Notes: generated by a model from the letters alone, not told the origin. Shown: positions 1,902 to 43,101, counted from the stretch's first letter. The stretch is DNA of 64,000 nucleotides from Denitrovibrio sp. (GCA_002869185.1 PKTN01000010.1:105274-169273); one strand, 5' to 3'. Program-made: numbers and translations.

Positions 1902-3215
1902 TTAAGAATTTAATAAATAGTCATTAATAATAATTCTATGATCGAAAACTATATCATCAGGCAGAGCATTTATTTTGTAAAAGACGGCATTTTTAGCGTC
2001 ATCTCCAGCAGTCGGTTTTTGATCTGATTCGGTGGAGTAGACAACTGAAACTGTGTGCCCACGTTTATCTCTTGATGGGTCAGAGTATACACCAAGCATT
2101 GAGATACAGTCAGCATTTATCCCTGTCTCTTCAAGGAGTTCACGTCTAGCAGCATCTTCGACTTTTTCGCCATAGTCAACAAACCCACCAGGTAAAGCCC
2201 AGCCGTAAGGCTCGTTTTTACGCTCTATAAGTAGAAGCTCGTCACCATTTCTGACAATCATATCTACGGTTAGGCGAGGGCAGTAAAGAAAGTGAGCACC
2301 GTATTTGAATTCGAGCGAGCGATAAATCGTTTCGCAGTATGGAGCTTTCAGTCCATTTGCTTCGTGTGTTCTAATTACAGGTCCCAGAATTCCGTCAACT
2401 TCAGGATTTCTGTGCCTTTCTATATCTTGCAACATGCTTGTTTTATATTTATTTAGTGAGTCTCGGTGAGCGATTTTTTCTTTCCACTCTTTTTCGGTGA
2501 TAGTTACGCCATGCATCTTTGCAGCGGCTACAACTTCGAGCACCATATTCTCTATTAATGGACGGATAGTGTCGCTCTTTATCATAGGACCACAGGTACT
2601 TTCAAGTAGAGCGGATAGAGGATTGTATGCAACATTCCAAACAAGTTTACTCCAAAGTGTGTGATGCACATCTGGGCTTATGTCTGCTGAGATGTTACTC
2701 TTATCAAAGATAGCTTTCAATGCTATCTCAAACTTTTTAGATTGATCAGACCATGCACCAAATGATAGTGCACCCTGAGCTGAGTGAAAAACAGTTCCGA
2801 CAGGCTCTATTGCTGTGCCTATGAAAAGACTCGCCGCAATAGTACGTTCTTCGCCAAAAATATTAGCAACTATATCTGGGTTCTCGACTCCATTCTGAAA
2901 GGAGACGATACAACCATCTGCACTAAGTGAGTTTAGAAGTAATTGGCATGTTGTTGCTGTGTCTTGTGATTTTACACATAGAAATATGATATCGTATTTT
3001 CCTGTAGGATTCTCTACAGCGTTTACGGGAATCTCTATTTGACCATGGTTCCAGCTATTAAACTTTAAAAGACCTGTCTCTTGCATAGCTTTCAGGTGCT
3101 TCCCTCTAGCCATTAGTTCAATATTGTATCCTGCTTGTGCCATAAGACCGCCGTAAAAGCTTCCTATAGCGCCAGCGCCAGCGACTAGAATTCTCTTATC
3201 TGAAGACAATTTCAT
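1902..3215 (-). CDS. 2-dehydropantoate 2-reductase (PanE/ApbA) fused to a C-terminal NUDIX hydrolase domain
   Basis: N-terminal Rossmann motif ILVAGAGAIGSFYGG and a ketopantoate-reductase-like body. C-terminal Nudix box GGFVDYGEKVEDAARRELLEETGI. Confidence 0.7.
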   Translation of the reverse strand: MKLSSDKRILVAGAGAIGSFYGGLMAQAGYNIELMARGKHLKAMQETGLLKFNSWNHGQIEIPVNAVENPTGKYDIIFLCVKSQDTATTCQLLLNSLSADGCIVSFQNGVENPDIVANIFGEERTIAASLFIGTAIEPVGTVFHSAQGALSFGAWSDQSKKFEIALKAIFDKSNISADISPDVHHTLWSKLVWNVAYNPLSALLESTCGPMIKSDTIRPLIENMVLEVVAAAKMHGVTITEKEWKEKIAHRDSLNKYKTSMLQDIERHRNPEVDGILGPVIRTHEANGLKAPYCETIYRSLEFKYGAHFLYCPRLTVDMIVRNGDELLLIERKNEPYGWALPGGFVDYGEKVEDAARRELLEETGINADCISMLGVYSDPSRDKRGHTVSVVYSTESDQKPTAGDDAKNAVFYKINALPDDIVFDHRIIINDYLLNS

Positions 3216-5604
3216 CTTTTACCAGTTTAACTTTCAAGTTTTTGCGTTTGCTGAATTTCCCCTCAAGTAGCATTTCGCTGAGAGGATCCTCGATCTTAGC
3301 TTGAAGCAACCTTCTGATAGGTCTAGCTCCATAGTTATATTCGTATTCACCACTAACAAGATATGCTTTTACGTCTTCATCAATAGATATTTGCTTGTTC
3401 ATGATCTCAAGTCTTTCGTTTATCTCTTGAAGCTGTAAGTCAATGATCTTTATTAGGTCAGTTTTTCCAAGTGGTTTGAAAACTACAAGGTTATCAACTC
3501 TATTGATGAACTCAGGTGGGAACTTATCTTTAAGTTCTTTGTTAGCGTTATCACTGAAAACTTTGTAGTCGATCCCTTCTTCTGATTCTTCTTTAGTTTC
3601 AAAACCGACAAACTTTTTGTTCATGCTAAGTTTTGTACCCAAGTTTGATGTCATTATAATTATTGTATTTTTAAAGTTTACCTTGTGTCCGAGACTGTCA
3701 TTGATATGACCATCGTCTAGGATTTGCAGAAGGATGTTTAAAACTTCTGGGTGAGCTTTCTCAATTTCGTCAAATAAGACAACAGAGTATGGCTTTCTAC
3801 GAACCTGCTCGGTCAGCTTTCCACCCTCTTCGTATCCAACGTATCCCGGAGGTGCTCCGATAAGTATAGAGGAGTTATGTCTCTCCATAAATTCACTCAT
3901 ATCTATACGGATGAGTGAGTTCTCTGAGCCAAATACTATCTCAGCGAGTTTCTTTGCTACTTCTGTTTTACCAACTCCAGTAGGTCCCATAAAGATAAAT
4001 GAACCTAAAGGACGTGCAGGGTTAGAAAGTCCAGCAAAGCTACGTTTTACTGATCTAGAGAGAGCATCAACAGCTTCCTCCTGACCAATGATGAATTGTT
4101 TTATATCATTGTCTATATTGGCTATGCGAGCCATGTCGTCAGTCTTAAGCTTTTGTACAGGGATGCCTGTCATATGAGCTATAACTTCAGAAATATTTTC
4201 GAAGGAGAGTGATGGCCAAGCGAGATCGATCTCTTCTTCCCACTCTTTTTGAGCTACAGAGAGCTTGTTAGCCCACCGCTCAACATCTTTTGAGTGTTTC
4301 TCGATGTTGTCATAGTCATTGGCACGGAGCTTCTCGTCACGAACCTCTTTAAGGTTATCGAGTTTACTCTTAATGCGCAAAACATCATCAGGCATCTGGC
4401 GTGTCGCAAGCTTTAGCCTTGAGCAAGCTTCGTCTAGGACGTCTATACTCTTGTCTGGCTGAAACTTGTCAGTGATATATCTGTCTGTAAGGCGCGAAAT
4501 CTCTTCAAGTACGTCATGAGGGATAAACACCTTATGGAAATCTTCGTAAAAACGTTTGATACCGTCGAGAATAAGAACTGTCTCGTCATAGTCAGGTTGG
4601 TCGACGAGTATCGTTTGAAATCTACGGTTGAGTGCGCCATCCTTTTCAAAATTCTTTCTAAATTCGCTAAGAGTGGTAGCACCTATACACTGGAAAACGC
4701 CTCTTGCGAGAGCTGGTTTTAGCATGTTTGATGCGTCGATAGAGCCTTCTGCGGCTCCTGCACCTACGATAGTGTGAATTTCATCTATGAAAACAATGAC
4801 GTTTCCGTCAGTTTCTATCTCTTTTATGAGGTTCTTCATACGCTCTTCGAACTGACCACGGTATTTTGTGCCAGCGACAACATTACCAAGTTCAAGTGAG
4901 AAAAGTCTTTTGTTACGAAGGAAATCAGGTAGATCGTCACTAGCCATTTTAATAGCCAGCCCTTCGACTATAGCTGTTTTACCAACACCAGGCTCACCTA
5001 TGATAACTGCGTTATTTTTGATACGTCTGCCGAGAATCTGGATCATACGTGTTATCTCTGTCTCACGACCAATAACAGGATCAAGCTTCCCTTCTCTAGC
5101 AAGCTTTGTAAGGTCACGACCAAATTCATCAAGAGTAGGCGTTGCGGCCGTATCTTTATTTTTTGAATAAGTTTTTGACAGGTTTTGTATTTCTTCTCTA
5201 AGTGTGATGAGATCAAACCCTAGCTTAGAAAGGAGCATTGAAGCTTTACCTTTCTTTTCTCTGAGCAGACCAAGCATGATATGCTCAGTGTTCACATACT
5301 TATTTTTAAGTAGTTTAGATTCCTCAACAGAGTAGTCGAGAACAGTCTTACCATTTTGGCTGAAAGGCAAGCTACCTTTTATCATAAGGTTATGCCCTTT
5401 TTCACTTACACCCTTGACGTCATTCATGAGCATGGTTACGTCAATTCCGCGTCTACTGAAAATCTCTGCTTCAAGTCCAGAACGCTCTCTGAGCAGTCCT
5501 AGAAGTATGTGTTCTGTATCTATTGAGGTCTGCATCAGTCTCTCTGAAGCTTCCCTAGCAAAAAGTATTACCCTTCGGGCTCTATCTGTAAAAAGTTCAA
5601 ACAT
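3196..5604 (-). CDS. clpC: ATP-dependent Clp protease ATP-binding subunit ClpC (Clp/Hsp100, two AAA+ modules)
   Basis: Double Clp_N repeat ([13 protein letters not shown]...). Walker A motifs GEPGVGKT and GPTGVGKT. Length 802 aa with a short middle domain. Confidence 0.85.
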
Positions 5605-5775
5605 TTTATCGCCTCTCTCTTGCCATATTATATTGCTGATGGGGATAGTTTTTCAAGAGTAATCTTTATAAAGTTCAAATTAATTTAGACTAAATGACTC
5701 GCAATTTAGAATTGGGTTGACACAAGGAGCTCTGGGGCTGATAATATGCTAAGTATCTTGTGTTTGAGGTGTATT

Positions 5776-6318
5776 ATGGGAAATGAGAATCTTTTTGCTG
5801 TCACATTGATAGCTTCCGACAGACCAGGTATCGTAGCTGGCGTTTCAAAGGTTTTTTACGAGAATAATTTCAATATCGAAGACTCTAGCTCTAAGCTTTT
5901 ACAAGGGTTCTTCTCTGCGATATTCATAGTTAATTGCAAAGATGGTCGTTCAGTTGATGACGTTAAGCAGCTTTTTGTTAAGCTTGAGTCAGATATGGGC
6001 ATAGAAGTATATGTACAAACTATGAACGAATCAGTCCCTATGCAAGAAGGGGAGCATTATGTTATCTCTGTTTATGGAGCAGATAAATCGGGGATAGTTA
6101 ATAGTATTGCTGAGTATTTATCAGAAAAGAAAATAAATATCATGGATTTGCAGACAAAGGTTGCAGGTTCTGATGCGAGTCCTATATATATCATGGTCCT
6201 TGAAGTAATAATTGAAAACGATGCCGATGTTAAAGGCTGGGAAGAGGATCTGAAGAATATTTCCAGAGATCTTGGAACAGATGTAAATATTAGGCATATC
6301 GAAACATACGAGTTTTAG
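5776..6318 (+). CDS. Tandem ACT-domain protein (GcvR-like regulatory protein)
   Basis: Two ACT-like repeats (DRPGIVAGVS..., GADKSGIVNSIA...). ATG at 5776 follows GAGGTG. Confidence 0.55.
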   Translation: MGNENLFAVTLIASDRPGIVAGVSKVFYENNFNIEDSSSKLLQGFFSAIFIVNCKDGRSVDDVKQLFVKLESDMGIEVYVQTMNESVPMQEGEHYVISVYGADKSGIVNSIAEYLSEKKINIMDLQTKVAGSDASPIYIMVLEVIIENDADVKGWEEDLKNISRDLGTDVNIRHIETYEF

Positions 6319-6321
6319 CAA

Positions 6322-6825
6322 ATGGCAGAAAGAGAAGTTTTAATATATCCAGACCCTAGACTCAAAGAGATTGCTAGAGATGTTGATCTGGTTGATGATT
6401 ATATAAAGCAGGTTATTCAGGACCTAATAGATACAATGGAGATGTCAGGACATTCAACAGGTATCGCTGCTACTCAGATAGGTGAACCTGTGCGGATTGT
6501 TGTGGCTGATGCATCTAAGAACAAGAAATGCGAAGATAACCACGGTCGGCTTGTGATGATAAACCCAGAAATTCTAAAGTGGGAAGGGATGTTGCAGTTC
6601 CGTGAGGGGTGCATGTCTGTTCCTGACTTTACTGGAAACGTTAACCGAGCTAGGAAAATTCTTATCCGCTACCAAGACGAAAATTTAGAGTCAAAAGTGA
6701 TAGAAGCGGAAGGTTTTGAGGCTGTATTGTTACAACATGAGACTGACCATTTAGAAGGGACACTCTTTATCGATAGAGTGATATCTAAGCGTACAGACCT
6801 TTTTAGAAGGAAGAAGTATAAATAA
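6322..6825 (+). CDS. def: Peptide deformylase
   Basis: Motifs GIAATQIG, EGCMSVP and HETDHLEG. Confidence 0.9.
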   Translation: MAEREVLIYPDPRLKEIARDVDLVDDYIKQVIQDLIDTMEMSGHSTGIAATQIGEPVRIVVADASKNKKCEDNHGRLVMINPEILKWEGMLQFREGCMSVPDFTGNVNRARKILIRYQDENLESKVIEAEGFEAVLLQHETDHLEGTLFIDRVISKRTDLFRRKKYK

Positions 6826-6831
6826 GTATTA

Positions 6832-6965
6832 GTCATCATGAGGAGCGAAGGGACGTAATGGTCTCAGATTTCAGCAAACTAACAGTTTTTAGTCACTGTG
6901 ACTAATAACTGTAGCATAATATACGCTTGAGACTCCCACGGCTTTTGACAAAGCCTCAGAGTGAC
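6832..6965. repeat. MITE-like element with imperfect terminal inverted repeats (GTCAnnnTGAGG) and an internal 15-bp palindrome
   Basis: The left end is GTCATCATGAGGA. The right end reverse-complements to GTCACTCTGAGGC. The left end is a 13/13 inverted match to 49542-49554. Confidence 0.45.
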
Positions 6966-6983
6966 AAAAGAGAGGGAGAATAC

Positions 6984-7925
6984 ATGAAAATTCTTATAAC
7001 AGCAGAACTACCATTTGATGTTGAAGCATACCTTAAAGGGAATGAAGTAGACTATAACAAAGGGAAACCTCTCTCACCTAAAGAGCTTATGAAAAGGGCG
7101 AAAGACGTGGACGCTGTTATCTCTATGCTCTCTGACAAGATTGATAAAGACTTTCTAGCCTCGTGTGAAAACCTGAAAGTCGTGGCCAACTATGCAGTTG
7201 GCTATAACAACATAGATGTGCAGACCGCCACTGAAAAAGGTGTTGTTGTGTGCAATACTCCAGATGTCCTCACTCAAACTACTGCTGAACTTGGTTTTAC
7301 GCTTATGATGGCTGCCGCTAGACGGTTGCCTCAGAGTGAGCAGTTCACTCGTAATAAAAAATTCAAAGGGTGGAAACCAGACCTCTTTTTAGGGATGGAT
7401 CTATTCGGTAAAACTATCGGAATCTTTGGCTTTGGTCGTATAGGTCAGGCAGTTGCTAAGATGGCATCAGGTTTTAATATGAATATCGTCTATAACTCCA
7501 GGTCTAAGAAGACTCAGGCAGAGCTACTTACAGGTGCTACAAAGGTGAGTTTTGAAGATATGGTTAGGAAGTCTGATTTCGTTGTAATAACTGCTCCTGC
7601 AACAGAGGAGACTAAACATAAATTTACTCTCGAAACATTTAAACAAATGAAATCATCAGCCGTTGTTGTAAATATTGGTCGTGGGGAAATCATCAAAGAG
7701 AAGGATCTTGTGACAGCTTTGCAGAATAATATGATCTTTTCTGCTGGGCTTGATGTTTATGAATTCGAACCAAAGATCGACGAAGGTCTTTTTAAACTTG
7801 ATAATGTTGTTCTCGCTCCACATATTGGTAGTGGAAGTTATGCTACCCGTGAGGCAATGGCAAAACTTTGCTGTGACAGTGTTCTTAAGGTCTATAAAGG
7901 CGAAACTCCTAAAAATATCGTCTGA
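6984..7925 (+). CDS. D-2-hydroxyacid dehydrogenase (glyoxylate/hydroxypyruvate reductase-like)
   Basis: NAD-binding motif GIFGFGRIGQAVA. Catalytic region NIGRGEII...APHIGS. ATG at 6984 follows GAGGGAG. Confidence 0.8.
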   Translation: MKILITAELPFDVEAYLKGNEVDYNKGKPLSPKELMKRAKDVDAVISMLSDKIDKDFLASCENLKVVANYAVGYNNIDVQTATEKGVVVCNTPDVLTQTTAELGFTLMMAAARRLPQSEQFTRNKKFKGWKPDLFLGMDLFGKTIGIFGFGRIGQAVAKMASGFNMNIVYNSRSKKTQAELLTGATKVSFEDMVRKSDFVVITAPATEETKHKFTLETFKQMKSSAVVVNIGRGEIIKEKDLVTALQNNMIFSAGLDVYEFEPKIDEGLFKLDNVVLAPHIGSGSYATREAMAKLCCDSVLKVYKGETPKNIV

Positions 7926-7959
7926 ATCGCCTCGTATTTACCGCAAAGAAAATTAATAG

Positions 7960-7994
7960 TTGACAAAGATACATATATATTTCTATATATATGT
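7960..7994 (+). promoter_or_regulatory. Putative promoter (TTGACA) overlapped by a perfect 10-bp inverted repeat operator
   Basis: TTGACA at 7960-7965. ACATATATAT (7971-7980), spacer TTCT, ATATATATGT (7985-7994). It lies 28 nt upstream of the Cys-rich permease gene. Confidence 0.45.
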
Positions 7995-8021
7995 AAATGT
8001 TGTTAATTTAAAGGTCGAGTA

Positions 8022-9068
8022 ATGATATACATACAAAAGTATTTTAGTTCATTTTGGGAGATGACTCTCCTTATGCACGCATATATTATCTTTTGTTTAA
8101 TAGTTGCGGGTGTCATAAAAGAATTCCTATCAGACGAATACATAAAGAAGAATCTTGGTGGAACTGGTCTCTGGGCTGTTGTGAAAGCAACACTTCTTGG
8201 GCTACCCTTGCCACTATGCTCTTGTGGAGTTATTCCGCTGGCCGCATCACTCAGAAAGAGCGGTGCAGGGAAGGGTGCTGTAACAAGCTTTTTTATCTCT
8301 ACCCCAATGACTGGTGCTGATTCTATTATCGCTACTTATGGTGTTTTTGGTTGGATAATCACTCTTTTCAGAGTTGTTAGTGCATCAATCGCTGCAATTC
8401 TAGCTGGTTTTTTTACTGATAAATTTACAGGAGATGATGAATTCGCCGGACCTTCTGGCTGTGGATGCTCTGGTGGTTGTTGTTGTACTGTCGAAGTGGC
8501 AAAACCTACAGCTTTTGACAGAGTAAAAGGGATTTTTCGCTACGCTTTCGTTGAGCTATTGGGTGACCTTGCGTATCCGCTTCTCGCTGGGCTTTTGATG
8601 GCGGCACTCATTACACTATTTATCACACCTGAAATAACAGGGAACAGAACTGGGATAGTATTCGGCTATCTTCTTGCATTTACCGCAGGGGTACCACTTT
8701 ATGTTTGTTCTATTTCAGCTATACCTATAGCCTTATCATTTCTAGTCGCTGGGTTTTCCCCCGGTGCGGCGTTCATTTTTTTAGCTGCTGCTCCTGCGAC
8801 AAATATCATCGCACTCAGTGTTGTGAAGAATATGCTTGGTAAACGTGGGGTAGCTATCTATTTGACTTCTATTATTTTAGTGACACTAGCAACGGCACTT
8901 ATTGTAGATTATCTATATTTGAATACCGGACTCAGTTTTAATGGATTTACTGGAGAAGATGAGGCATTTGGAATGCTGGAGACAGTGACAGCGTCAGCCT
9001 TTTTGATAATTATTACTTTGATAAGTCTAAAACAGAAACTGTTCAGAAAAAATCATAACCACCACTAG
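8022..9068 (+). CDS. Multi-pass permease (DUF318/ArsP-like) with a Cys-rich loop; putative metal(loid) transporter
   Basis: About 8-10 hydrophobic segments. Motifs LPLCSCGVIPL and CGCSGGCCC. Confidence 0.55.
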   Translation: MIYIQKYFSSFWEMTLLMHAYIIFCLIVAGVIKEFLSDEYIKKNLGGTGLWAVVKATLLGLPLPLCSCGVIPLAASLRKSGAGKGAVTSFFISTPMTGADSIIATYGVFGWIITLFRVVSASIAAILAGFFTDKFTGDDEFAGPSGCGCSGGCCCTVEVAKPTAFDRVKGIFRYAFVELLGDLAYPLLAGLLMAALITLFITPEITGNRTGIVFGYLLAFTAGVPLYVCSISAIPIALSFLVAGFSPGAAFIFLAAAPATNIIALSVVKNMLGKRGVAIYLTSIILVTLATALIVDYLYLNTGLSFNGFTGEDEAFGMLETVTASAFLIIITLISLKQKLFRKNHNHH

Positions 9069-9181
9069 AGGTGATGTAAATCAGACAGCGAATATCTACA
9101 TAACCCACATCCCTCGCCCATAAAGGGTGAGGAATGATAGGTTGTAAATTGAGTTATAGCATGCCTCAAGCTGCTACATTG

Positions 9182-10003
9182 TTATATAAATGATTCGATT
9201 AGTTTAGATACATCTTTAGCCTTTATCTCTGTTGAGATTTCAGGGTGACGCTCATCGTATGATGGTCTATCGTATTTGCTATAAAGACCGAGATAATATT
9301 TATCTGGCTCAGTGGCAAGTGCTATAGCCTTTTCAGGTGACGGCATCTCTGTTAGTTTCTCTGTTCGCTCATCATAATAATCATACTTATAATCTCCGCC
9401 AAATGTTACACACGGCTGTAGAACGTCAATGATAGCGAAACCTTTGTGCTGTATACCTCCAGCGATAAGCTCTGCTAATTGTTCTGATTCTCCAGAATAC
9501 CCACGTGCCACGTATGTAGCTCCGTTAGCCATAGCGAGAACAAGTGGATTTATCTGAGCATCAACAACGCCAAACGGTGTCGATTTAGAGATAGTCCCTT
9601 CCACAGCAGTAGGTGCTGCTTGACCTGTAGTCAGTCCGTACACTTTGTTGTGATGGACTATATATGTGACATTAATGTTTCTACGGATTGCGTGGATAAG
9701 GTGTCCAACACCCATTCCGTAGCCGTCTCCGTCGCCACCATTTACTATTACGTTGAGCTCTGGATTAGCGAGTTTTACGCCTGTTGCCACTGGGAGAGTC
9801 CTTCCGTGTAGAGCGTGGAAAGCGTAACTACGAACATGGTTTACCATCTTACCAGAGCAACCGATACCAGAGACGAGAGCGATCTTTTGTGGCTCTAGTT
9901 CGAGTGAAGCGAGTGCTTTCTTTATGCTGTTCCATATGGCGAAGTTTCCGCAACCAGGGCACCATACAGGGATTTTACCAGTGTTATAAGTTAAAGGTTT
10001 CAT
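9182..10003 (-). CDS. 2-oxoacid:ferredoxin (acceptor) oxidoreductase, beta (TPP-binding) subunit
   Basis: Motifs WCPGCGNFAI and GGDGDGYGMG. The start overlaps the alpha-subunit stop (TAATG). Confidence 0.85.
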   Translation of the reverse strand: MKPLTYNTGKIPVWCPGCGNFAIWNSIKKALASLELEPQKIALVSGIGCSGKMVNHVRSYAFHALHGRTLPVATGVKLANPELNVIVNGGDGDGYGMGVGHLIHAIRRNINVTYIVHHNKVYGLTTGQAAPTAVEGTISKSTPFGVVDAQINPLVLAMANGATYVARGYSGESEQLAELIAGGIQHKGFAIIDVLQPCVTFGGDYKYDYYDERTEKLTEMPSPEKAIALATEPDKYYLGLYSKYDRPSYDERHPEISTEIKAKDVSKLIESFI

Positions 10004-11691
10004 TAAAGCACCTCCTTAACGTATTCTAGGACTTCTTCGGTAAAGAATGGTCGTCCATCGTATTTAAGGAATTTTTTATTAATCATAATTCCAGTATTTT
10101 CAGCGATTAGAGCACCTAGTTGTGCCGTCTTATTATTTTCGAACATAGTCAGGTTCTTACTTTTCATAAGTTCAGTCACTTTGTCCCAATCGATAGGGTG
10201 TACCGATGGGAAGTAGATAAAGTTAAACCTGTCATCAAACTTCATAGCTTCAAGCAGAACCTGTTTCATAGAGCCGAAGCATACAAAGGTCATCTCTGCA
10301 TCTTCTTTGCCTATAAGGTATGGTTGAGGCATTTCAGCAGTTACGAATGGTTGCTTGCTGAAACGTCTATCTGTCTGAGTTATTCTATTTTCTGCTGTGT
10401 CAGAGACAAAGCCTATTTCATCGTGTTCGTTACTACTAGCTATAAAGAGTCCACCATCTGTTCCGGGGATGCTACGTGTACATACACCATCTTTAGTCTC
10501 TTTAAATCTTTCGAAGTGAGCAACAGGGTTTTCTGAGTCGCCTTCAAAAATGAGTCCTCTATCTACCTCGCCGTATTCTGGGTCTAGCTCACCAGACATG
10601 AAGGCTGATTCTGATAAAAATTTATCTAAAAGAACTATAACTGGTATCTGATATTTCTCTGCTAGGTTGAAAGCATCAAAAGTAAATTTATAAGCCTCTT
10701 CGATATCCCCAGGTGTATATATAGCTCTAAGGAACTCACCTTGTGATGCATGGAGTGCGTATTGCAAATCAGCTTGCTCTGTCCATGTAGGAAGTCCTGT
10801 GGCTGGTCCCGGTCTCTGTGAGAGTGCCACAACTAACGGTATCTCAGTGATAGCAGCGAGTCCAAAGCCTTCGTTCATAAGAGCGAAGCCTCCACCTGAT
10901 GTACCCGTCATAGCTCTAGCCCCTGCGTGTGCAGCCCCTATTGCCATGTTTATTCCTGAAATCTCATCCTCTGCGTGTTTAACTGTGATGCCGAAATCAC
11001 GTGCTTGTTTAGCTAGGTAGTGCAGAATGGAGCTTGCTGGTGTCATAGGGTATGTGCTGAAGAAATTTACGCCAGCTCTGATAGCCCCTATGCATACTGC
11101 CTCGTTACCTGACATGAAGGCGTTAGTTTCACAATCGTCGTTAGATGTAAAATCAAGCCCTTCAAGTTGGCAACTGCAAGCATCGTAGCCAGCAATAGCA
11201 GCTTGAACGTTAGCCTCTGCAATCTTTTCTGGGTAGCTAGTTCTGACAACCTATTCCATGATCTCTTTAGGAAGACCAAGGGCCGCTATGGATGCTCCAA
11301 GCGCCACTGTGTTCTTCATAATATCTTTACCCTCTATGTCAGCAATTATCTGCTTGAGAGGTACGTCAATTTTTTTGCCATTTGCTGTGTCGCCCTTTTT
11401 GAGATTAGCAAAATCTCCGATAACTACTGTGTCATCTCTGAATTCTTCTCTCTCAAAGCAAACATCAGCGAGTGCGATATAAATATCAATATCCTTCATT
11501 GGTGCTGTGACTGGTGTTCTGGAGAATACTATCTGGTAGCTATTGTATCCACCTCTAATTATTGACGGGTACTCTAAGTATCCGTGGACGAAATATCCGC
11601 ATTTTTTGAGAATATTCGCAAAAACAGGACCAAGGGAACTGATTCCGAATCCAGCGGGACCACCCACTTTCCAAACAAATGATTTGTCCAT
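10003..11691 (-). pseudogene. 2-oxoacid:ferredoxin oxidoreductase alpha subunit (fused gamma-alpha type), interrupted by an in-frame TAG at 11251-11253
   Basis: ORFs 11251-11691 (gamma-like domain) and 10003-11115 (alpha domain, YPMTPASS) are in the same frame. Translation across the join reads ...LGLPKEIME-TAG-VVRTSYPEKIAEANVQAAIAGYDA...FMSGNEAVCIGA with no other stop. Confidence 0.8.
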
Positions 11692-11702
11692 AGTTGCCTC
11701 TT

Positions 11703-12257
11703 TTAGTTTAAGTTATTTTCATTAAAAATTAGCGCTTCAAATCTATATATTTCAGTATCTGGCTCTTTCCAGTCATTTTGACTAAGACCAGCTTTAACGC
11801 ATGTTTGTTCCAAAAATTCTTTACTGTTCCAATCTCTCTCTGTTGCTACTTGTGGAAGAAGGACCCCTCTGCTGTTCCCTTTGATGATGTATATACCATC
11901 TCTGCCAACAGTGATCTCATCTGCTGTTGTTTTGACCATGGGAGACAGCACGGATATCTCTATCTCACACATTCCTAGTTCATCTTTTGAAACTGGACCA
12001 AACCTAGGGTCTGCAAATGCTGCTTGGCATGCCATCTCGGAGATGTTTTGTGCTATATTAATGTCGTCACGGAAATTACCTATGCAACCTCTAAGTCTGT
12101 TTCTTAGGTTGATAGTTACAAAACAACCACCATTGAAGTCAAGCTCATCAGGAACTGTTTCAAGACTATATATCTGATTGTCCTGTTTTGATCTTATGCT
12201 TTGTCTTGCTAATTTTAAAAGGAGTAAACGGGTCTCTCTTGAGAGCTGAAGCGTCAT
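11703..12257 (-). CDS. AMMECR1 domain protein (AmmeMemoRadiSam system protein A-like)
   Basis: LRGCIGNF motif. ATG at 12257 follows AGGTGA. Confidence 0.7.
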   Translation of the reverse strand: MTLQLSRETRLLLLKLARQSIRSKQDNQIYSLETVPDELDFNGGCFVTINLRNRLRGCIGNFRDDINIAQNISEMACQAAFADPRFGPVSKDELGMCEIEISVLSPMVKTTADEITVGRDGIYIIKGNSRGVLLPQVATERDWNSKEFLEQTCVKAGLSQNDWKEPDTEIYRFEALIFNENNLN

Positions 12258-12457
12258 ATGTGTCACCTGAAATAATAATAAGATTATTAACAATTAAAAC
12301 GTTTTGATATCGGTTTGTCAACATGGATAGGTATTCTCTTTTTTAATTTGATACTTTGGTAATCTGGTATAGGGCATTAGGATAAATTTGAAATTACTCA
12401 TTAATAAGAGTAAGGTATTTTTATAAACAAAGATATGGTCTGAAAGGTATTAAAAAA

Positions 12458-13933
12458 ATGAAACACATAAATAAGTTATATTTATTGATAATAATTCTGT
12501 TGTCGACAGTTGTTTGTCATGGAGCAGATCTGGAAAAAATGTATCAGCCTTATTATAAGCAACTTGATAAAGTGCGAGAGAATAAACAAGAAGAGCTAGT
12601 GAGATACTTAAAGAGAGTCGAAAGCGTAGCGAAAAGTATTGGATCCGACAGTGAAATGAAAGATTTATTTATTATGAAACGCCACTTATATAACCAAACC
12701 AAAACAGCAGCAATGACTCAAGAGCAAAAAGATATACAACAGTTTCTACGTAATTCAATTATAGATAGGTATATGGACAGATATCTAGTTTTTTATGACC
12801 TTCTTTTCATAGATGAAGCTGGAGATATCTTTTATACGAACAGAAGGCAAGGGGATTATCGTAAAAACATTTTTAAAGGAAAATTGGCAAAAACAGCCCT
12901 TTCAAAGCACCTTAAGAATGATTCAAAATATTCATTTGTAGATTATCAAAATTTTGAGGTCTCTGCTGAACCTTCTGCATTCTTTATGGTACCTTTTGTT
13001 ATGAACGGGAAAAAACTAGGATGGTTTGTATTACAGTTTGCTGTCAATCGAATTGATGATATGTTTTCGATCGAGTCTAATCTAGGTAGGACAGGTGAAG
13101 TTTTTTTAGTCAATGAAGACCAATATATGCTCACTGATTCTCGATTTACAGCAGAAAGTACTATTTTAAAAAAACACCTCTCTAGCGATAATATTTTACC
13201 AAAATTTAAAGAGAAGTCTGGTCATAAATTAGTAGTAGATTATCGTGGTTTTAGAGCTCTTTCATCATTTAACGTTATTTCAGTCTTGGGAAGTAAATGG
13301 CTCATTATTGCGAAAATTGATGAAGATGAAGTATTAACAAGTGAATACAAAAAGATGTCTAATCGAAAACAGAATATTTTCATCAAAGATACTATTAATT
13401 CAATAAATATAAAAAAAGTGGAAAAGTATATTTTAAAGAAAGACATAGAAGTAGATATGGATGAGTTCAAAAGAGCAACCAATGGTCAAACACTATATAC
13501 TCACTGAGTTTCAACATGTACTGCATTGATCTTTAGCCTAAAAGAAAAATTTGCATATATGGCACATATGAGTGGATATGATAAAATCTACGGAGGAGAT
13601 GGTACAGATTTATTAAATCACATCATGAAGCGTATTGATGAATTTGATGCTGTTAGAAATGAAAAACGTTTGATAAAAGTCTATATTGTTTCGCCTAATG
13701 TCAATTATGATAAAAATATCATCGATGCTCTGCTTAGATGGGGACTGATGCTCTCTCAGATAAATATCATCGTTAATCCTCAAGCTAAGTATGCTGATAT
13801 CTCACATGACTATACAACTCAAAAGACACTTATAAACTGGAATGTACAGATGAAAAAAGTAAAATATGGAATGTATATGGATGATGTTCATTCTTTAGCT
13901 GAATATTATTACAGAACGCGGGCTTCAAATTAA
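12458..13933 (+). pseudogene. Signal peptide plus Cache-like sensor domain joined, across an in-frame TGA (13505-13507), to a CheD-like deamidase-fold domain
   Basis: ORFs 12458-13507 and 13526-13933 share a frame. Cache signature GRTGEVFLVNEDQYMLTDSRF. The junction TLYTH-TGA-VSTCTALIFSLKEKFAYMAHMS resembles the CheD active site TLGLGSCVAVC...GAMAHVML. The Cys lies before the first possible start codon of the second ORF. Confidence 0.5.
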
Positions 13934-32908: not shown

Positions 32909-34546
32909 ATGAAGAATTGTAAGGGTTTCTTACCGAAAATTATGGGCGTGCTGTTTTTTCAGGGTGGTATAGCAGTTGCTATCTTTGTAATTAATCGTAA
33001 TTTTATAAAAAAAGCTTCGAGTATGCCGAGTGATGAGCTCAGTTCATATCTAATGGGTGCAGTAGCTAAATCAACAACATACTCAGTTGGTCTTCTTGTT
33101 ATTGGTTTGATTGTGGCTGTTATTATTGCATTCTATATAAATAATAATTTTTTAAATAGTTTAGATAATGTTTCTGAAGTTCTTAGAAGTCTTGAAAATG
33201 GTGATCTAACAAACAGGGTTAAGGATGGGGATGCAGGTAGCCTTTGTGCCCTTGGCAAGCTAGTTAATCAGACAATGGAGAAGGTCGACGATACTATATC
33301 CAGCTTTTACTTCGCATCTTCAAACATTGGAAGTGCCTCTAAGAATCTATTAGATATTTACGCATCTGTTGGTGATATGGTTAATAACGTTAATGACAGT
33401 GTCGTTAGTGTGAGTTCAGCTGCTGAAGAACTTAATGTTACAGGGCAGAACGTCTTGGATATGTGCCGTACTTCATCAGAAAGCATTGTTAATTGTAATC
33501 TTGAGGTAGCCATTGGTAAAAGCATTATCAGTGAGAATAGAGAAAGTATGGAAGAAATATCAGGTGGTATTAATTCTATAGTTGATGTTGTGACAGGTTT
33601 TCAGGTTCAGTCACAGGAGATTGGTCAGATAGTACTCTCTATTAACGAAATCGCAGATCAGACAAACTTACTTGCACTTAATGCTGCTATTGAGGCGGCT
33701 AGGGCTGGGGAGCATGGACGTGGATTTGCTGTTGTTGCTGACTAGGTTAGAAAACTAGCTGGCAAGACATCTGATTCAACTAAGCAGATCGAGGACGTTA
33801 TCAGAGATCTACAGGCTAGGATCAATGAAGTGAATAGCTCAGTTGAGAAATCTGTTAATCTTGTAGAAAAAGTGATCAGTCTCTCCGATAGTTCAGTAGA
33901 AGCTATCGAAAAAATAAATGAAAATATCAGCAATGTTGCTGAACAAATAGATGGTATCGTACATTCTAAAGAGGAAGAAACACAGGCTCTGAACGACGTG
34001 ACAAGAAGTACAACAGAGATCAGCAGTTCAACTGTAGAGATTATAAAAGTTGTAGAAGAGTCATCCCTTGCTGGTGAGAATCTGAGTGGACTTGCTAATA
34101 GTATTACTAAGAGTGCGGAAGTTTATAAATCTGACAAAATGAAAGAGTTTATGCCTTGGAGCGATAAACTTAAGCTTGGCGTTAAGATGTTTGATGATCA
34201 GCATAAAGAGCTCATTAGAATAATTAACAGCCTTTATGTTGCTATGAAAGACAACAGAGGAAATGACGCTCTTATTGAGATTCTTGACGAGCTTGTAAGC
34301 TACACTGTATATCACTTTGACAGTGAAGAAGAGATGTTTACTAAGCATGGATATCCTAGACAATCAGAACACGTCACAATCCATACAAACCTTAAGAATA
34401 CTGCTGGAGAACTAAGAGCGAAGATTATAGCAGGTGAGGCTGTAATAGGTTTTAACGTGATTAGCTTCCTGGAAAACTGGGTGAAAAATCATATCCTAGT
34501 AGAAGACATGAAATATGTAGACTTTTTTAAATCGAAAGGTCTTTAG
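32909..34546 (+). pseudogene. Methyl-accepting chemotaxis protein with a C-terminal hemerythrin domain, interrupted by an in-frame TAG at 33743-33745
   Basis: TM/HAMP region. Signalling hairpin [48 protein letters not shown]. The TAG replaces the near-invariant Glu of the VVADEVRKLA motif. ORFs 32909-33745 and 33830-34546 share a frame. Hemerythrin motifs: FDDQHKELI and YTVYHFDSEEEMF. Confidence 0.85.
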
Positions 34547-39760: not shown

Positions 39761-41614
39761 TTATATCTTTTTAAGTACTCTTTTATTATCTTTGTTTATG
39801 AAAAGCCCTGTTTTGTCGAGCTGTTCCATCATAGGGACGAGAATCTTTCTCGGTAGCTCAAAGTGCTTTTTCATCCCTTGTAAATCGACGTGACCTACAG
39901 CTTCGCACTCTTGAGTAGCCTTATCTATGAATGTATTCAGCATCTCCATTGTGACATGATTGTTACCTTCGATATTTTTCGCAAGGCTTCTATTGCACAA
40001 GTATTGGAGACATTTTTGTATCTTTTGTTCAGGGATGCCCATCTTTTCGGAAAGGCGGGCTTGGTTCGAAAGTGTAGGGTCTGTCATCATTAGTGTCAGT
40101 ACGGATGTGGCTAGTTCGTCAAAAGGATCTCTCTCTTTCTTCTTTAGCATCTGCCCATCAAATATGTAGTTTTGTTTTTGAGCCCTTTCAATGATTCGAT
40201 TAATGATATCGAAACGGACAGGCTCAGGAAGCTTATTGCATGTATGCTGTATTTTGCTGATAGCAAGGCTCTCTTGCTTGTTGAGAATCTCTATAGTGTT
40301 CTCAACGTAGTTCTCTAGGTTTTTGTTATCAAGGATAAACCCTTGAAAATTAGCTATATTAAGCTGAGCAAGCTTCATAGTTAGCTCATTTCTGATTAGT
40401 CCAGAGAACTGTATAGGTTCAGGTAACTCTAGTCCACAATGAAATATCTCTACGACCTTTTTTATTGCATTATCATAGTCATGTATACTTAGAAGGTTCA
40501 TAATATCTTTGGTATATTTTCTATTCGGATAGGTCTCTGCGATGCCTAATACTCGACCACCAGCGACACTCACTTGAGGACTTCCAAGTCTAATTATGAA
40601 TGGTTCGTCAAAGTATGGTGTTATCTCTTTGTCTAGCTTGATAAAGCAGTTTGCACTCTCACCAGGTGACAGTTTCTTTATGTCATAAAAGATGATTTTC
40701 GCTTCGCAGGATAATGCGCCTATATATAATGAATATGACTTGTTATGCTTTATAAGTACCTTGTCGGATATACCTTCAAAGATGTTTAGATTAGCATAAA
40801 TTCCTTTGGTTGTTTGAATCTTTGGGTTGTCTGAGAGAATGTCTCCACGTTTTATGTCATTGGTCGAAAAATCAGGTAGGTTAAGTGCTGTCCTTTCACC
40901 AGCTACAGATTTGCTGACAAGTTTATCGTGCACTTGGATGCTCTTTGTTTTGGCAGACTTGAGATTTCTTGTATTGTAAATGAGAGTGTCGTTTGTTACG
41001 GAGCCGAATAACGACGTTCCAGTGACAACTGTTCCACTCCCTTTTATGCTGAAAACTCTATCAGCACGGACAACATAGCATCTCTTTTGAAGTTTTGGCT
41101 GAACCTTGCCAGCACATATACCAATAGCCTCTTTTAACTCTTTTATACTAGCTGGATTTCTTGTGTCAGTTTTAATTATATCTATAATTTTTATTTTACT
41201 ATTTTCGAATAGCTCAACGATCTCTTCTTTTACCGTGTCGATCTGTTCGGTGGAGCACAGGTCTGATTTTGTGATAGCGACTACACAATAGGGAACGCCA
41301 ATCGTCCTGATAATGTTATAATGCTCGATAGTTTGAGGTTTGATACCTTCGCGACCATCCACACAGAAAAGTACCGAGTCAAAGCCGACAGAGCCAGCGA
41401 TCATAGTCTTTACAAGTCCTTCATGCCCTGGCACATCTACAAATGAGATGTTCGCCTGTTCAGTCTCCATCCCTGCGAAGCCTAGTTCTATGGTAATCCC
41501 TTTCTCTTTCTCTTCTTTTAGCCTGTCTGGGTCTTTTCCTGTCATGGCTAGAACGAGGGAAGATTTACCATGGTCAATGTGTCCTGCAGTACCAAATATG
41601 ACACTCTTTTTCAT
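39761..41614 (-). CDS. selB: Selenocysteine-specific translation elongation factor
   Basis: G-domain motifs [18 protein letters not shown] and TKSD, followed by a long winged-helix C-terminus. It overlaps selA by 4 nt. Confidence 0.85.
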
Positions 41615-42966
41615 ATAATACGCTCCAAAGCGTTTTTAATAGTTTCGAAGTCCTTTTTGTCGAGTGTGCGAACATCGAGTATAAACTTATCATCTGTTAC
41701 TCTACCGATGATAGGTACTATATTATTTCGCATAAGCTTTTCTATCTGCTGAGGTTTCCTTTTTGGTATGTTCAGGGCTACCCCGTATGATGGAATTTCT
41801 GCTGTGGGGCAGCTTCCTCCGCCAATTGTCGATTTAACCTCTATTATTGACGTAGCGCAAGGGAGCATTTCTGCTAGTCTTTTAGCTTTTTCTGATAATT
41901 CTGGTAGCTCTGCTGATAGCATCTTGTTGACAGGTATGTCGCCTGCAGAGCCATCTATATATTTACGAAAGACAGCTTGAAGGAGTGCTAGAGTTAGCTT
42001 GTCCACACGGAACATCCTCATTAGCTGGTTCTTTTTTATTTTGGATATTAGTGCTTTACTGCCGATGATAATGCCAGCTTGGGTTCCACCTAGCATCTTG
42101 TCACCGCTGAAGGAAATAAGATCGAATCCTGTCTTTACTATGTCAGGTATAGTTTGGTCATCACATATGCTGTCAGGAAGAACCTTTCTGAATAGTCCGC
42201 TACCAGCATCATAATACGACATAACATCAGCCTCTTTGGCAGATTGAGCTATCTCACCAAGAGTAGCTTCTTCACTGAAACCGATTATTTCGTAGTTACT
42301 TTTATGTATTTTCATCATCATAGCGGTCTTGTTAGATACCGCCTTTGAATAGTCATCTACTCTCGTCTTATTAGTTGTGCCCACTTCTTTGAGCTTAGCA
42401 CCGCTTCTTGTCATTACGTCAGGTACACGGAAGCTTCCGCCTATCTCGACCAACTCTCCACGGCTTACTATCACTTCTTTGTTTTTCGCAAAAGTGTGAA
42501 GTATTAAAAAGACAGCGGATGCGTTGTTGTTGACGATGAGTGCGTCATCTGCACCTGTGAGGATTCGGAGGTATTCCGACACGTGGTGGTACCTGTCTCC
42601 ACGTTTTCCTTTTGCTACGTCATACTCAAGGTTGGCATAACCACATGCGATATCCATTGCCTCTTTGCATACATCTTCTGGTAGAGGGGATCTGCCTAAG
42701 TTTGTATGTATAGGGACACCTGTCGCGTTTATTACTTTATAAAGTGTTCCTTTAAGTGTGCGCTCGTATTCTGAATTTATTTTATCTGTTATCGCCTCAT
42801 GCTCAGGCATTGTGGCTGACTTCTCTATTAGATCGCGTCTGATATTTTCCAGAACTGTTCTGGTGGCTATCTTGACGAGCTCTGGGTTCATACCAGAGAA
42901 GGCTTTGTCTTGTATCAGTTTATCTATTTTTGGCAATTGCCTTAGTAGTGTGTTTTTGTTATCCAT
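41611..42966 (-). CDS. selA: L-seryl-tRNA(Sec) selenium transferase
   Basis: N-terminal LRQLPKIDKL and PLP-Lys motif FSGDKMLGG. The start is taken as ATG 42966. The ORF is open up to 43074. Confidence 0.82.
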   Translation of the reverse strand: MDNKNTLLRQLPKIDKLIQDKAFSGMNPELVKIATRTVLENIRRDLIEKSATMPEHEAITDKINSEYERTLKGTLYKVINATGVPIHTNLGRSPLPEDVCKEAMDIACGYANLEYDVAKGKRGDRYHHVSEYLRILTGADDALIVNNNASAVFLILHTFAKNKEVIVSRGELVEIGGSFRVPDVMTRSGAKLKEVGTTNKTRVDDYSKAVSNKTAMMMKIHKSNYEIIGFSEEATLGEIAQSAKEADVMSYYDAGSGLFRKVLPDSICDDQTIPDIVKTGFDLISFSGDKMLGGTQAGIIIGSKALISKIKKNQLMRMFRVDKLTLALLQAVFRKYIDGSAGDIPVNKMLSAELPELSEKAKRLAEMLPCATSIIEVKSTIGGGSCPTAEIPSYGVALNIPKRKPQQIEKLMRNNIVPIIGRVTDDKFILDVRTLDKKDFETIKNALERII

Positions 42967-43101
42967 AGTATATTTCCGCCCAATCAGTGATTCTACTATA
43001 TTACTCATAATATGACAAACCGCTTTTTTGTGACATTTTTTCTTACGAAAAGAGGAGTGATGATATATATTCAAGGTGTTATGAAAAACTAGGAGACGGA
43101 A

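Follow-up and report, generated by a model that had tools for sequence, protein, structure and literature searches.

The window analyzed here, meaning the whole stretch of DNA under study, comprises 64,000 nucleotides of a metagenome-assembled genome (MAG) of Denitrovibrio sp. (GCA_002869185.1, PKTN01000010.1:105274-169273), and the gene in question lies on its plus strand at positions 12458-13933. A 349-codon open reading frame (ORF) covers positions 12458-13507 and is closed by a TGA stop at 13505-13507. Beyond this TGA the frame stays open, with 141 sense codons before a TAA at 13931-13933, the sequence spanning the stop being TLYTH*VSTCTALIFSLKEKFAYMAHMS. The GenBank/NCBI annotation lists two proteins for this region, PLX66811.1 (349 aa) and PLX66812.1 (135 aa, start TTG 13526). 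We consider it likely that positions 12458-13933 represent a single gene for a secreted protein of 491 aa, composed of a signal peptide, a dCache_1 module, and a domain of the CheD fold, with a TGA that is private to this assembly and with the predicted function of a Cys-His amidohydrolase. At this locus the gene stands alone, flanked by divergent and unrelated genes, and a promoter and terminator scan of its flanks gave matches no more frequent than in shuffled sequences. The gene and its parts are as follows.

12458-13933, plus strand: whole gene, 491 codons and TAA, broken at codon 350 in this assembly
12458-12523, plus strand: predicted signal peptide, residues 1-22, with MKHINKLYLLIIILLSTVVCHG/AD cleavage (hydropathy)
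12530-13399, plus strand: dCache_1 module, approximately residues 25-314, with two PAS-like alpha/beta modules framed by N-terminal and C-terminal helices (Pfam, AlphaFold 2 (AF2), Foldseek)
13237, plus strand: private C-to-A change, synonymous GTC to GTA, V260 (assembly comparison)
13433-13930, plus strand: C-terminal domain of about 165 aa with predicted CheD-like fold (AF2 model, predicted local distance difference test (pLDDT) 93; Foldseek)
13499-13501, plus strand: Thr348, candidate for the third residue of a catalytic triad (equivalent of CheD Thr21), upstream of the TGA (invariant, n=60; aligned with T21)
13505-13507, plus strand: in-frame TGA, codon 350, wild type GGA (Gly); the G-to-T change at 13505 is private to the assembly
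13517-13519, plus strand: Cys354, candidate nucleophile (equivalent of CheD Cys27; invariant, aligned with C27)
13565-13567, plus strand: His370, candidate general base (equivalent of CheD His44; invariant, aligned with H44)
13874, plus strand: second private G-to-T change, GAT to TAT, D473Y (assembly comparison)

The open frame behind the TGA, which had been recognized in an earlier note made from the sequence alone and is confirmed by the 141 sense codons, is not a product of chance, since all family-invariant residues in it are retained (C354, F365, Y367, H370, S372, D375, Y378, Q434, W461). A search space of 5.8 billion proteins yielded 324 homologues; almost without exception, these measure 480-530 aa and cover both halves. 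Clustering at 90% identity groups the 349-aa product with a second sequence (P0121), an uninterrupted protein of 491 aa with Gly350 that differs from the window protein at G350 and D473 only. Independent assemblies, all from the same population, encode it: ENA ERZ794999 NODE_106, Logan SRR5894289, and JGI 3300007102. The gene order of the ENA and Logan contigs equals that of the window (2-oxoacid:ferredoxin oxidoreductase (POR), AMMECR1, the gene, sdhCDA), and position 13505 is a G in both of these assemblies, which were compared at the DNA level. The single polypeptide postulated in the earlier note is thereby substantiated by homologues of about 490 aa, nearly all of which carry both halves uninterrupted, and by the intact 491-aa protein in the other assemblies of the locus. 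Its expectation of a Gly at the position of the TGA was likewise correct, Gly350 being invariant in 60 homologues. The candidate catalytic Cys indeed lies upstream of any start of the second ORF, as the earliest in-frame start past the TGA is the TTG at 13526, 3' of Cys354 (13517-13519); its distance, given there as five codons, has to be corrected, with Cys354 being the fourth codon after the TGA.

Taken as a feature of the gene itself, the TGA did not stand up to the comparison with other assemblies: it is a private G-to-T change of this MAG assembly within a window-wide pattern of G:C-to-T:A changes. An ungapped alignment of window positions 2458-61956 (~59.5 kb) with the ENA contig ERZ794999 NODE_106 revealed 47 single-base differences and no indels. 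G:C to T:A accounts for 42 of these 47 differences, the T or A always being on the window side. Regarding coding effects, the 47 differences comprise 7 nonsense, 24 missense, 11 synonymous, and 5 intergenic changes. The remaining five differences are of other types, and each is either synonymous or lies between genes; thus, ordinary polymorphisms look filtered by selection, whereas the G:C-to-T:A changes do not. With moderate confidence, we regard the pattern as the mark of technical errors or damage in the consensus that was deposited, stemming from damaged or low-coverage reads.

Besides the TGA at codon 350, six further premature stops in the window are due to G:C-to-T:A changes (11253, 31050, 33743, 37970, 49884, 52081). 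The one at 11253 splits the alpha subunit of the 2-oxoacid:ferredoxin oxidoreductase, which appears as two ORFs (10003-11115 and 11251-11691) because of this truncating change, and the one at 33743 splits a gene for a methyl-accepting chemotaxis protein (MCP) with hemerythrin (32909-34546) into two ORFs. A contig of the JGI assembly (L062, 3300007102 Ga0102541_1044566, equivalent to window positions 24527-45483) shares two of 14 window variants (33743 and 36442) and has two private G:C-to-T:A changes of its own (36506 and 40936). Its split genes are PBP1, present as 411+334 aa, and the MCP-hemerythrin gene, present as 238+278 aa. Some of the window variants may therefore exist in a real sub-population.

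This leads to an alternative explanation that we judge to be unlikely, in which the TGA is a real nonsense mutation of a co-existing hypermutator lineage of the MutY/MutM type and the gene a fresh pseudogene there. Such a lineage would make only the secreted Cache fragment, and the product of the second ORF would be devoid of Thr348, Cys354, and a signal peptide. G:C to T:A is the classical mark of defective 8-oxoguanine repair, and the observed changes match this signature; furthermore, the recurrence of two window variants in the JGI assembly suggests their presence in a share of the reads, and the variants became the consensus in the deposited MAG. This explanation has to accommodate seven premature stops in ~60 kb, one of them in the alpha subunit of the 2-oxoacid:ferredoxin oxidoreductase, and the same stop density genome-wide would truncate far more genes than a viable lineage plausibly carries. 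Moreover, the G:C-to-T:A changes are without any sign of purifying selection while the few others are all silent, and the ENA and Logan assemblies agree on the G allele. The functional gene has GGA at codon 350 either way, be the change an artefact or the work of a mutator. For the window as a whole, this dense error-like G:C-to-T:A signature amounts to seven false or unselected stops in 60 kb, and any observation of split genes, recoding, or in-frame stops made on it needs a comparison with other assemblies.

Read as a single gene with GGA at codon 350, the locus encodes a protein whose only strongly hydrophobic segment spans residues 2-26, with nothing resembling a transmembrane segment further downstream according to hydropathy. 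An N-terminal hydrophobic stretch was found by the same measure in 58 of 60 homologues, and 22 of the 60 match a loose lipobox pattern. From this N-terminal signal sequence, the absence of any other transmembrane-like segment, and the lipobox-type Cys in homologues, we infer an exported, extracytoplasmic protein. In the clade of the window it would be soluble, as VVCHG/AD resembles a signal peptidase I site, and in many other homologues it would be lipid-anchored. An intact relative of 488 aa with 49% identity to the window protein is encoded by Denitrovibrio sp. BM701 (L040:5989-7455, PKTM01000019.1); it shows a clear lipobox (LMTVGC), and its gene is followed by a LolA-like gene.

The region following the signal peptide was assigned to the Pfam family dCache_1 (PF02743; residues 42-247, E 3.4e-12, 46.9 bits vs the gathering cut-off of 45), an assignment also precomputed on most homologues. 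The closest homologue (P0002, 491 aa, about 57-58% identical over the whole protein) yielded a full-length AF2 model with a pLDDT of 91 and a predicted template modelling score (pTM) of 0.86, in which long helices are followed by alpha/beta modules at residues 114-195 and 214-288. A Foldseek search with this model retrieved dCache sensor domains of chemoreceptors and kinases, known from crystal structures (E ~1e-9). The Pfam threshold, Foldseek, and hydropathy thus agree with the earlier note on a secreted Cache module without a following transmembrane helix. The whole-protein Foldseek search was dominated by these Cache matches and silent on the C-terminus, and the C-terminal domain was modelled separately.

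For the last ~165 aa, neither the window protein nor 29 homologues gave any Pfam or NCBIfam match. The AF2 model of this domain alone (residues 326-491 of P0002) reached a pLDDT of 93, and its best match in the PDB was CheD of T. maritima (2f9z_C; E 4.5e-7, TM scores 0.64/0.68, 165 columns). The next Foldseek matches were human NTAN1, YfiH/PgeF/YlmD, and CNF1, and the top 23 matches consisted entirely of CheD, NTAN1, YfiH/PgeF/YlmD (DUF152), or CNF1/CNFy. [quoted passage not shown]

Sequence conservation within the domain points to a putative active site at the position known from these enzymes. In 60 aligned sequences, Thr348, Gly350, Cys354, His370, Ser372, Asp375, Tyr378, and Trp461 are invariant, and C354 and H370 are invariant in 60 full-length as well as 29 domain sequences. 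A weak hidden Markov model (HMM) alignment to CheD (E=1.1) places T348, C354, and H370 on T21, C27, and H44. The spacing in the Cache-CheD-fold family is 6 residues from Thr to Cys and 16 from Cys to His; the triads T21/C27/H44 of CheD and S69/C75/H92 of NTAN1 are both spaced by 6 and 17 (PMC7022378). Most likely, the C-terminal domain is a periplasmic, Cache-controlled Cys-His amidohydrolase or deamidase, as predicted from fold and residue conservation.

Compared with known systems, the resemblance to CheD (PF03975; 2F9Z) is the closest: it is the best structural match of the predicted domain, has a similar size of about 155-165 aa, equivalent Thr/Cys/His positions with nearly the same spacing (C-to-H 16 here vs 17 in CheD), and in some lineages the family gene adjoins MCP and CheW genes. 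In MCPs, CheD targets the signalling domain located in the cytoplasm, and it has CheC as a binding partner. The family under study departs from this scheme in several respects. Its sequence profile shows no significant similarity to that of CheD, and it has its own invariant residues S372, D375, Y378, Q434, and W461. The domain is predicted to be extracytoplasmic and is fused to a Cache module, whereas CheD is cytoplasmic and stand-alone; in place of a cytoplasmic setting with a CheC partner, the signal peptide or lipobox places the family protein outside the cytoplasm.

NTAN1 (PDB 6A0E), the second-best structural match (E 7.7e-5, TMq ~0.5), combines a CNF1/YfiH-like alpha-beta-beta sandwich with a Cys/His/Ser triad of 6/17 spacing (PMC7022378). 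It differs in being eukaryotic and cytosolic, and its appended C-terminal region, conferring specificity for N-terminal Asn, is absent from the ~165-aa family domain. YfiH/PgeF and the toxins CNF1/BLF1 belong to the same fold superfamily and share the Cys-His nucleophile pair acting on amide bonds, though YfiH/PgeF and CNF1 matched far more weakly in structure (E 4e-3 to 0.3). YfiH uses a Zn site (PMC7022378), and the CNF1/BLF1 toxins enter host cells and are part of large multidomain proteins. With dCache sensor proteins, the family has its N-terminal 300 aa in common, which pass the Pfam threshold, match dCache structures, and share 23-30% identity with the tandem Cache modules found in the neighbouring MCP of Desulfatiglandales MAGs. 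In contrast to those sensors, no second transmembrane helix or cytoplasmic transmitter follows the module. For all Cache families except SMP_2, known signal-transduction output domains are listed in the survey by Upadhyay et al. 2016 (PMC4822843); the "output" found here differs from those in being an extracytoplasmic enzyme-like domain.

An exhaustive HMM search with the domain profile resulted in 251 clusters at 50% identity. Nearly all of them either contain the domain at approximately residues 330-490 of ~490-aa proteins or are short entries, which we take to be fragments or partial genes. It follows that the domain occurs almost only in the Cache fusion, and no canonical CheD was reached by this search. 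The fusion suspected from the single sequence thus turned out to be conserved, both halves being covered in nearly all 324 homologues. Genome matches, all of them MAGs, belong to Desulfobacterota, Myxococcota, Planctomycetota, Bacteroidota, Spirochaetota, Fibrobacterota, Krumholzibacteriia, and Deferribacterota. The Cache-CheD-fold architecture is real, conserved, and widespread across at least eight phyla, and its members are currently annotated as "cache domain-containing" or "hypothetical" only.

With 31.6% GC and 26% GC at third codon positions (GC3), the window gene is more AT-rich than its surroundings (window ~40% GC; GC3 of 35-41% in six other genes) and lies 8 GC points below its flanks. 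The same tendency, with a family gene 4-5 GC points below its flanks, was observed in five of six other genomes (L001, L004, L008, L014, L040), so that the AT-richness in the window is partly a family trait. The AT-rich composition reported in the earlier note is hence correct, and the accessory origin it derived from it finds weak support. The gene may have been acquired recently, which would agree with its scattered occurrence among phyla.

Neighbouring genes were clustered over 34 loci. In seven of these, from six Desulfobacterota-type MAGs and one Bacteroidales MAG, the gene occurs together with CheW and MCP genes, and five of the seven display the same-strand order CheW-MCP-X, with X being the Cache-CheD-fold gene. 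L007 and L014 share the same-strand order small ORF, CheW, MCP (4HB), X, MCP (Cache), hybrid kinase. The gaps adjoining X in L012 and L014 amount to 131 and 172 nt, and a second MCP gene follows X. The MCP downstream of X contains two tandem Cache modules homologous to that of X (30% identity, E 5e-28; 23%, E 3e-19). The conserved same-strand array, as spelled out for L012 and L014 (Desulfatiglandales MAGs, 2200-12800) and noted also for L011, L015, L016, L017, and L021, consists of an ORF of 128-139 aa, CheW, an MCP of ~900 aa (4HB_MCP_1), X, an MCP of ~917 aa, and a hybrid histidine kinase. Nine loci have a histidine kinase or response regulator gene in the neighbourhood. Genes of the cheC or cheD type were not seen next to the family gene, a regular-expression search for canonical cheD over all fetched loci returned only members of the Cache-CheD-fold family, and no universally conserved neighbour gene was found among the loci compared. 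The link to chemoreceptors, drawn from a clade-restricted operon and from Cache paralogy, is only a lead.

A second conserved neighbourhood is limited to a group of uncultured bacteria including one Planctomycetaceae MAG (L024, L029, L036, L013). There, an ORF of 159-188 aa adjoins the family gene, in three of four cases downstream, and was identified as PgpA (phosphatidylglycerophosphatase A) in L036, where scanned. A CinA-like gene comes next in three of these loci.

Several observations weigh against the interpretation of the locus as one intact gene for a Cache-coupled enzyme with CheD fold. Pfam CheD (PF03975) was matched at E<=10 by none of 29 family members and not by the window protein, an hmmsearch of PDB sequences gave CheD at E=1.1 only, and an hhalign comparison with an alignment of six annotated plasmid-borne cheD genes was not significant (probability 0.24%, E 0.26). 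A homologue search with a 44-aa CheD fragment returned three short fragments only and was uninformative in this respect. The fold was assigned on the predicted structure of a homologue of ~57% identity and not on the window protein itself. Gene contexts outside the chemotaxis-linked subset vary and indicate no partner, the neighbours including PgpA/CinA, a LolA-like protein, a PAS-GerE regulator, IclR, and outer-membrane proteins. Finally, the G-to-T changes at 33743 and 36442 are common to the JGI assembly, which would be rare under purely random errors.

Consequently, the CheD-like domain claimed in the earlier note can be maintained at the level of fold, where AF2 and Foldseek put CheD (2f9z_C) first and T348, C354, and H370 align with its triad, and has to be given up at the level of sequence family (no Pfam CheD, hhalign 0.24%). 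Of the searches proposed there, structure prediction thus favours CheD and the Cache HMM passes, while the CheD HMM fails. The model-based evidence supports a domain that is CheD-like in fold and active-site layout and is not a sequence-level member of PF03975.

These observations also leave some room for a domain that has the CheD-like sandwich and lacks amidohydrolase activity, serving instead for binding or dimerization or acting on a non-amide substrate, the latter having been proposed for some YfiH/LACC1 proteins. The insignificant sequence similarity to CheD is in line with this idea, as are the additional invariant residues S372, D375, Y378, Q434, and W461, which are not features of CheD, and the varied or disputed activities within the fold family according to the descriptions of the YfiH/YlmD matches. 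Considering that the Thr, Cys, and His residues never vary and occupy the positions of the CheD triad with CheD spacing, and that the nearest structural neighbours CheD and NTAN1 are both Cys-His deamidases, we find a non-enzymatic or non-amide role quite improbable, and the predicted Cys-His amidohydrolase remains our preferred assignment.

Further explanations of the interrupted frame fare considerably worse. A decoded TGA, with selenocysteine (Sec) or programmed read-through giving the full-length protein from this exact sequence, is hardly credible. The downstream frame is perfectly kept, and the Sec-insertion machinery is present, SelB (39761-41614, minus strand) and SelA (41611-43008, minus strand) being encoded in the window, so that the organism can insert Sec; neither a tRNA-Sec nor any other tRNA was found in the window. 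Opposed to this, all 60 sequences have Gly, and none Cys, at the homologous position, other assemblies of the locus have GGA, the RNA 3' of the TGA has no folding advantage over shuffled sequence (z -0.76), an Rfam search gave no match to a selenocysteine insertion sequence (SECIS), and six other G:C-to-T:A changes in the window also create stops. Selenocysteine and other recoding were rejected on the first four of these grounds, the hallmarks of a bacterial selenoprotein, a UGA aligned with Cys or Sec and a SECIS hairpin downstream of it, being absent.

Two separate genes as in GenBank, one for a secreted Cache protein and the other for a 135-aa protein of its own, listed by NCBI as PLX66811.1 and PLX66812.1, are just as implausible, because the domain is found mainly in ~490-aa proteins, with shorter entries starting inside the domain or having short N-terminal extensions, because the second ORF starts at a TTG within a beta-strand and is left without two of the three invariant catalytic residues and without a signal peptide, and because a conserved stop and restart at the junction occurs in 0 of 324 homologues. 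An alternative genetic code was rejected, since TGA also terminates further long ORFs within the window, indicating the standard code.

For the protein encoded by the intact gene, the following mode of action can be proposed. It would reside in the periplasm as a soluble protein or be held there by a lipoprotein anchor, where a small ligand bound by the Cache module might control or target the Cys-His amidohydrolase, which in turn would cleave a side-chain or N-terminal amide. Candidate substrates are Gln or Asn side chains or N-termini of proteins or peptides in the periplasm, among which the sensor domain of an adjacent chemoreceptor is one possibility; amidated muropeptides and small amides could serve as well. 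The output would be a chemical modification outside the cytoplasmic membrane and not a signal passed across it. In its most specific form, which we consider doubtful, the protein would be a periplasmic counterpart of CheD, namely a ligand-gated protein deamidase or N-terminal amidase whose targets, modified covalently, would be sensor domains that chemoreceptors or kinases expose outside the cytoplasm, with docking by Cache-Cache pairing to the homologous modules of the neighbouring MCP. If true, receptors would be modified or adapted at a further, hitherto unknown level outside the cytoplasmic membrane.

Prokaryotes use Cache domains more often than any other extracellular sensor, and to our knowledge these have been described almost exclusively as input modules of transmembrane signalling proteins. 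The architecture described here is an uncharacterized variant of an enzyme fold already known, unexpected both in its fusion and in where it is located in the cell. A conserved family spanning multiple phyla, in which Cache is fused outside the cell to a Cys-His hydrolase of the CheD/NTAN1 fold, would constitute a wholly periplasmic sensor-enzyme. Its position between chemoreceptor genes in some Desulfobacterota MAGs and one Bacteroidales MAG offers a testable case for covalent modification or ligand processing outside the cytoplasm in chemotaxis-like pathways.

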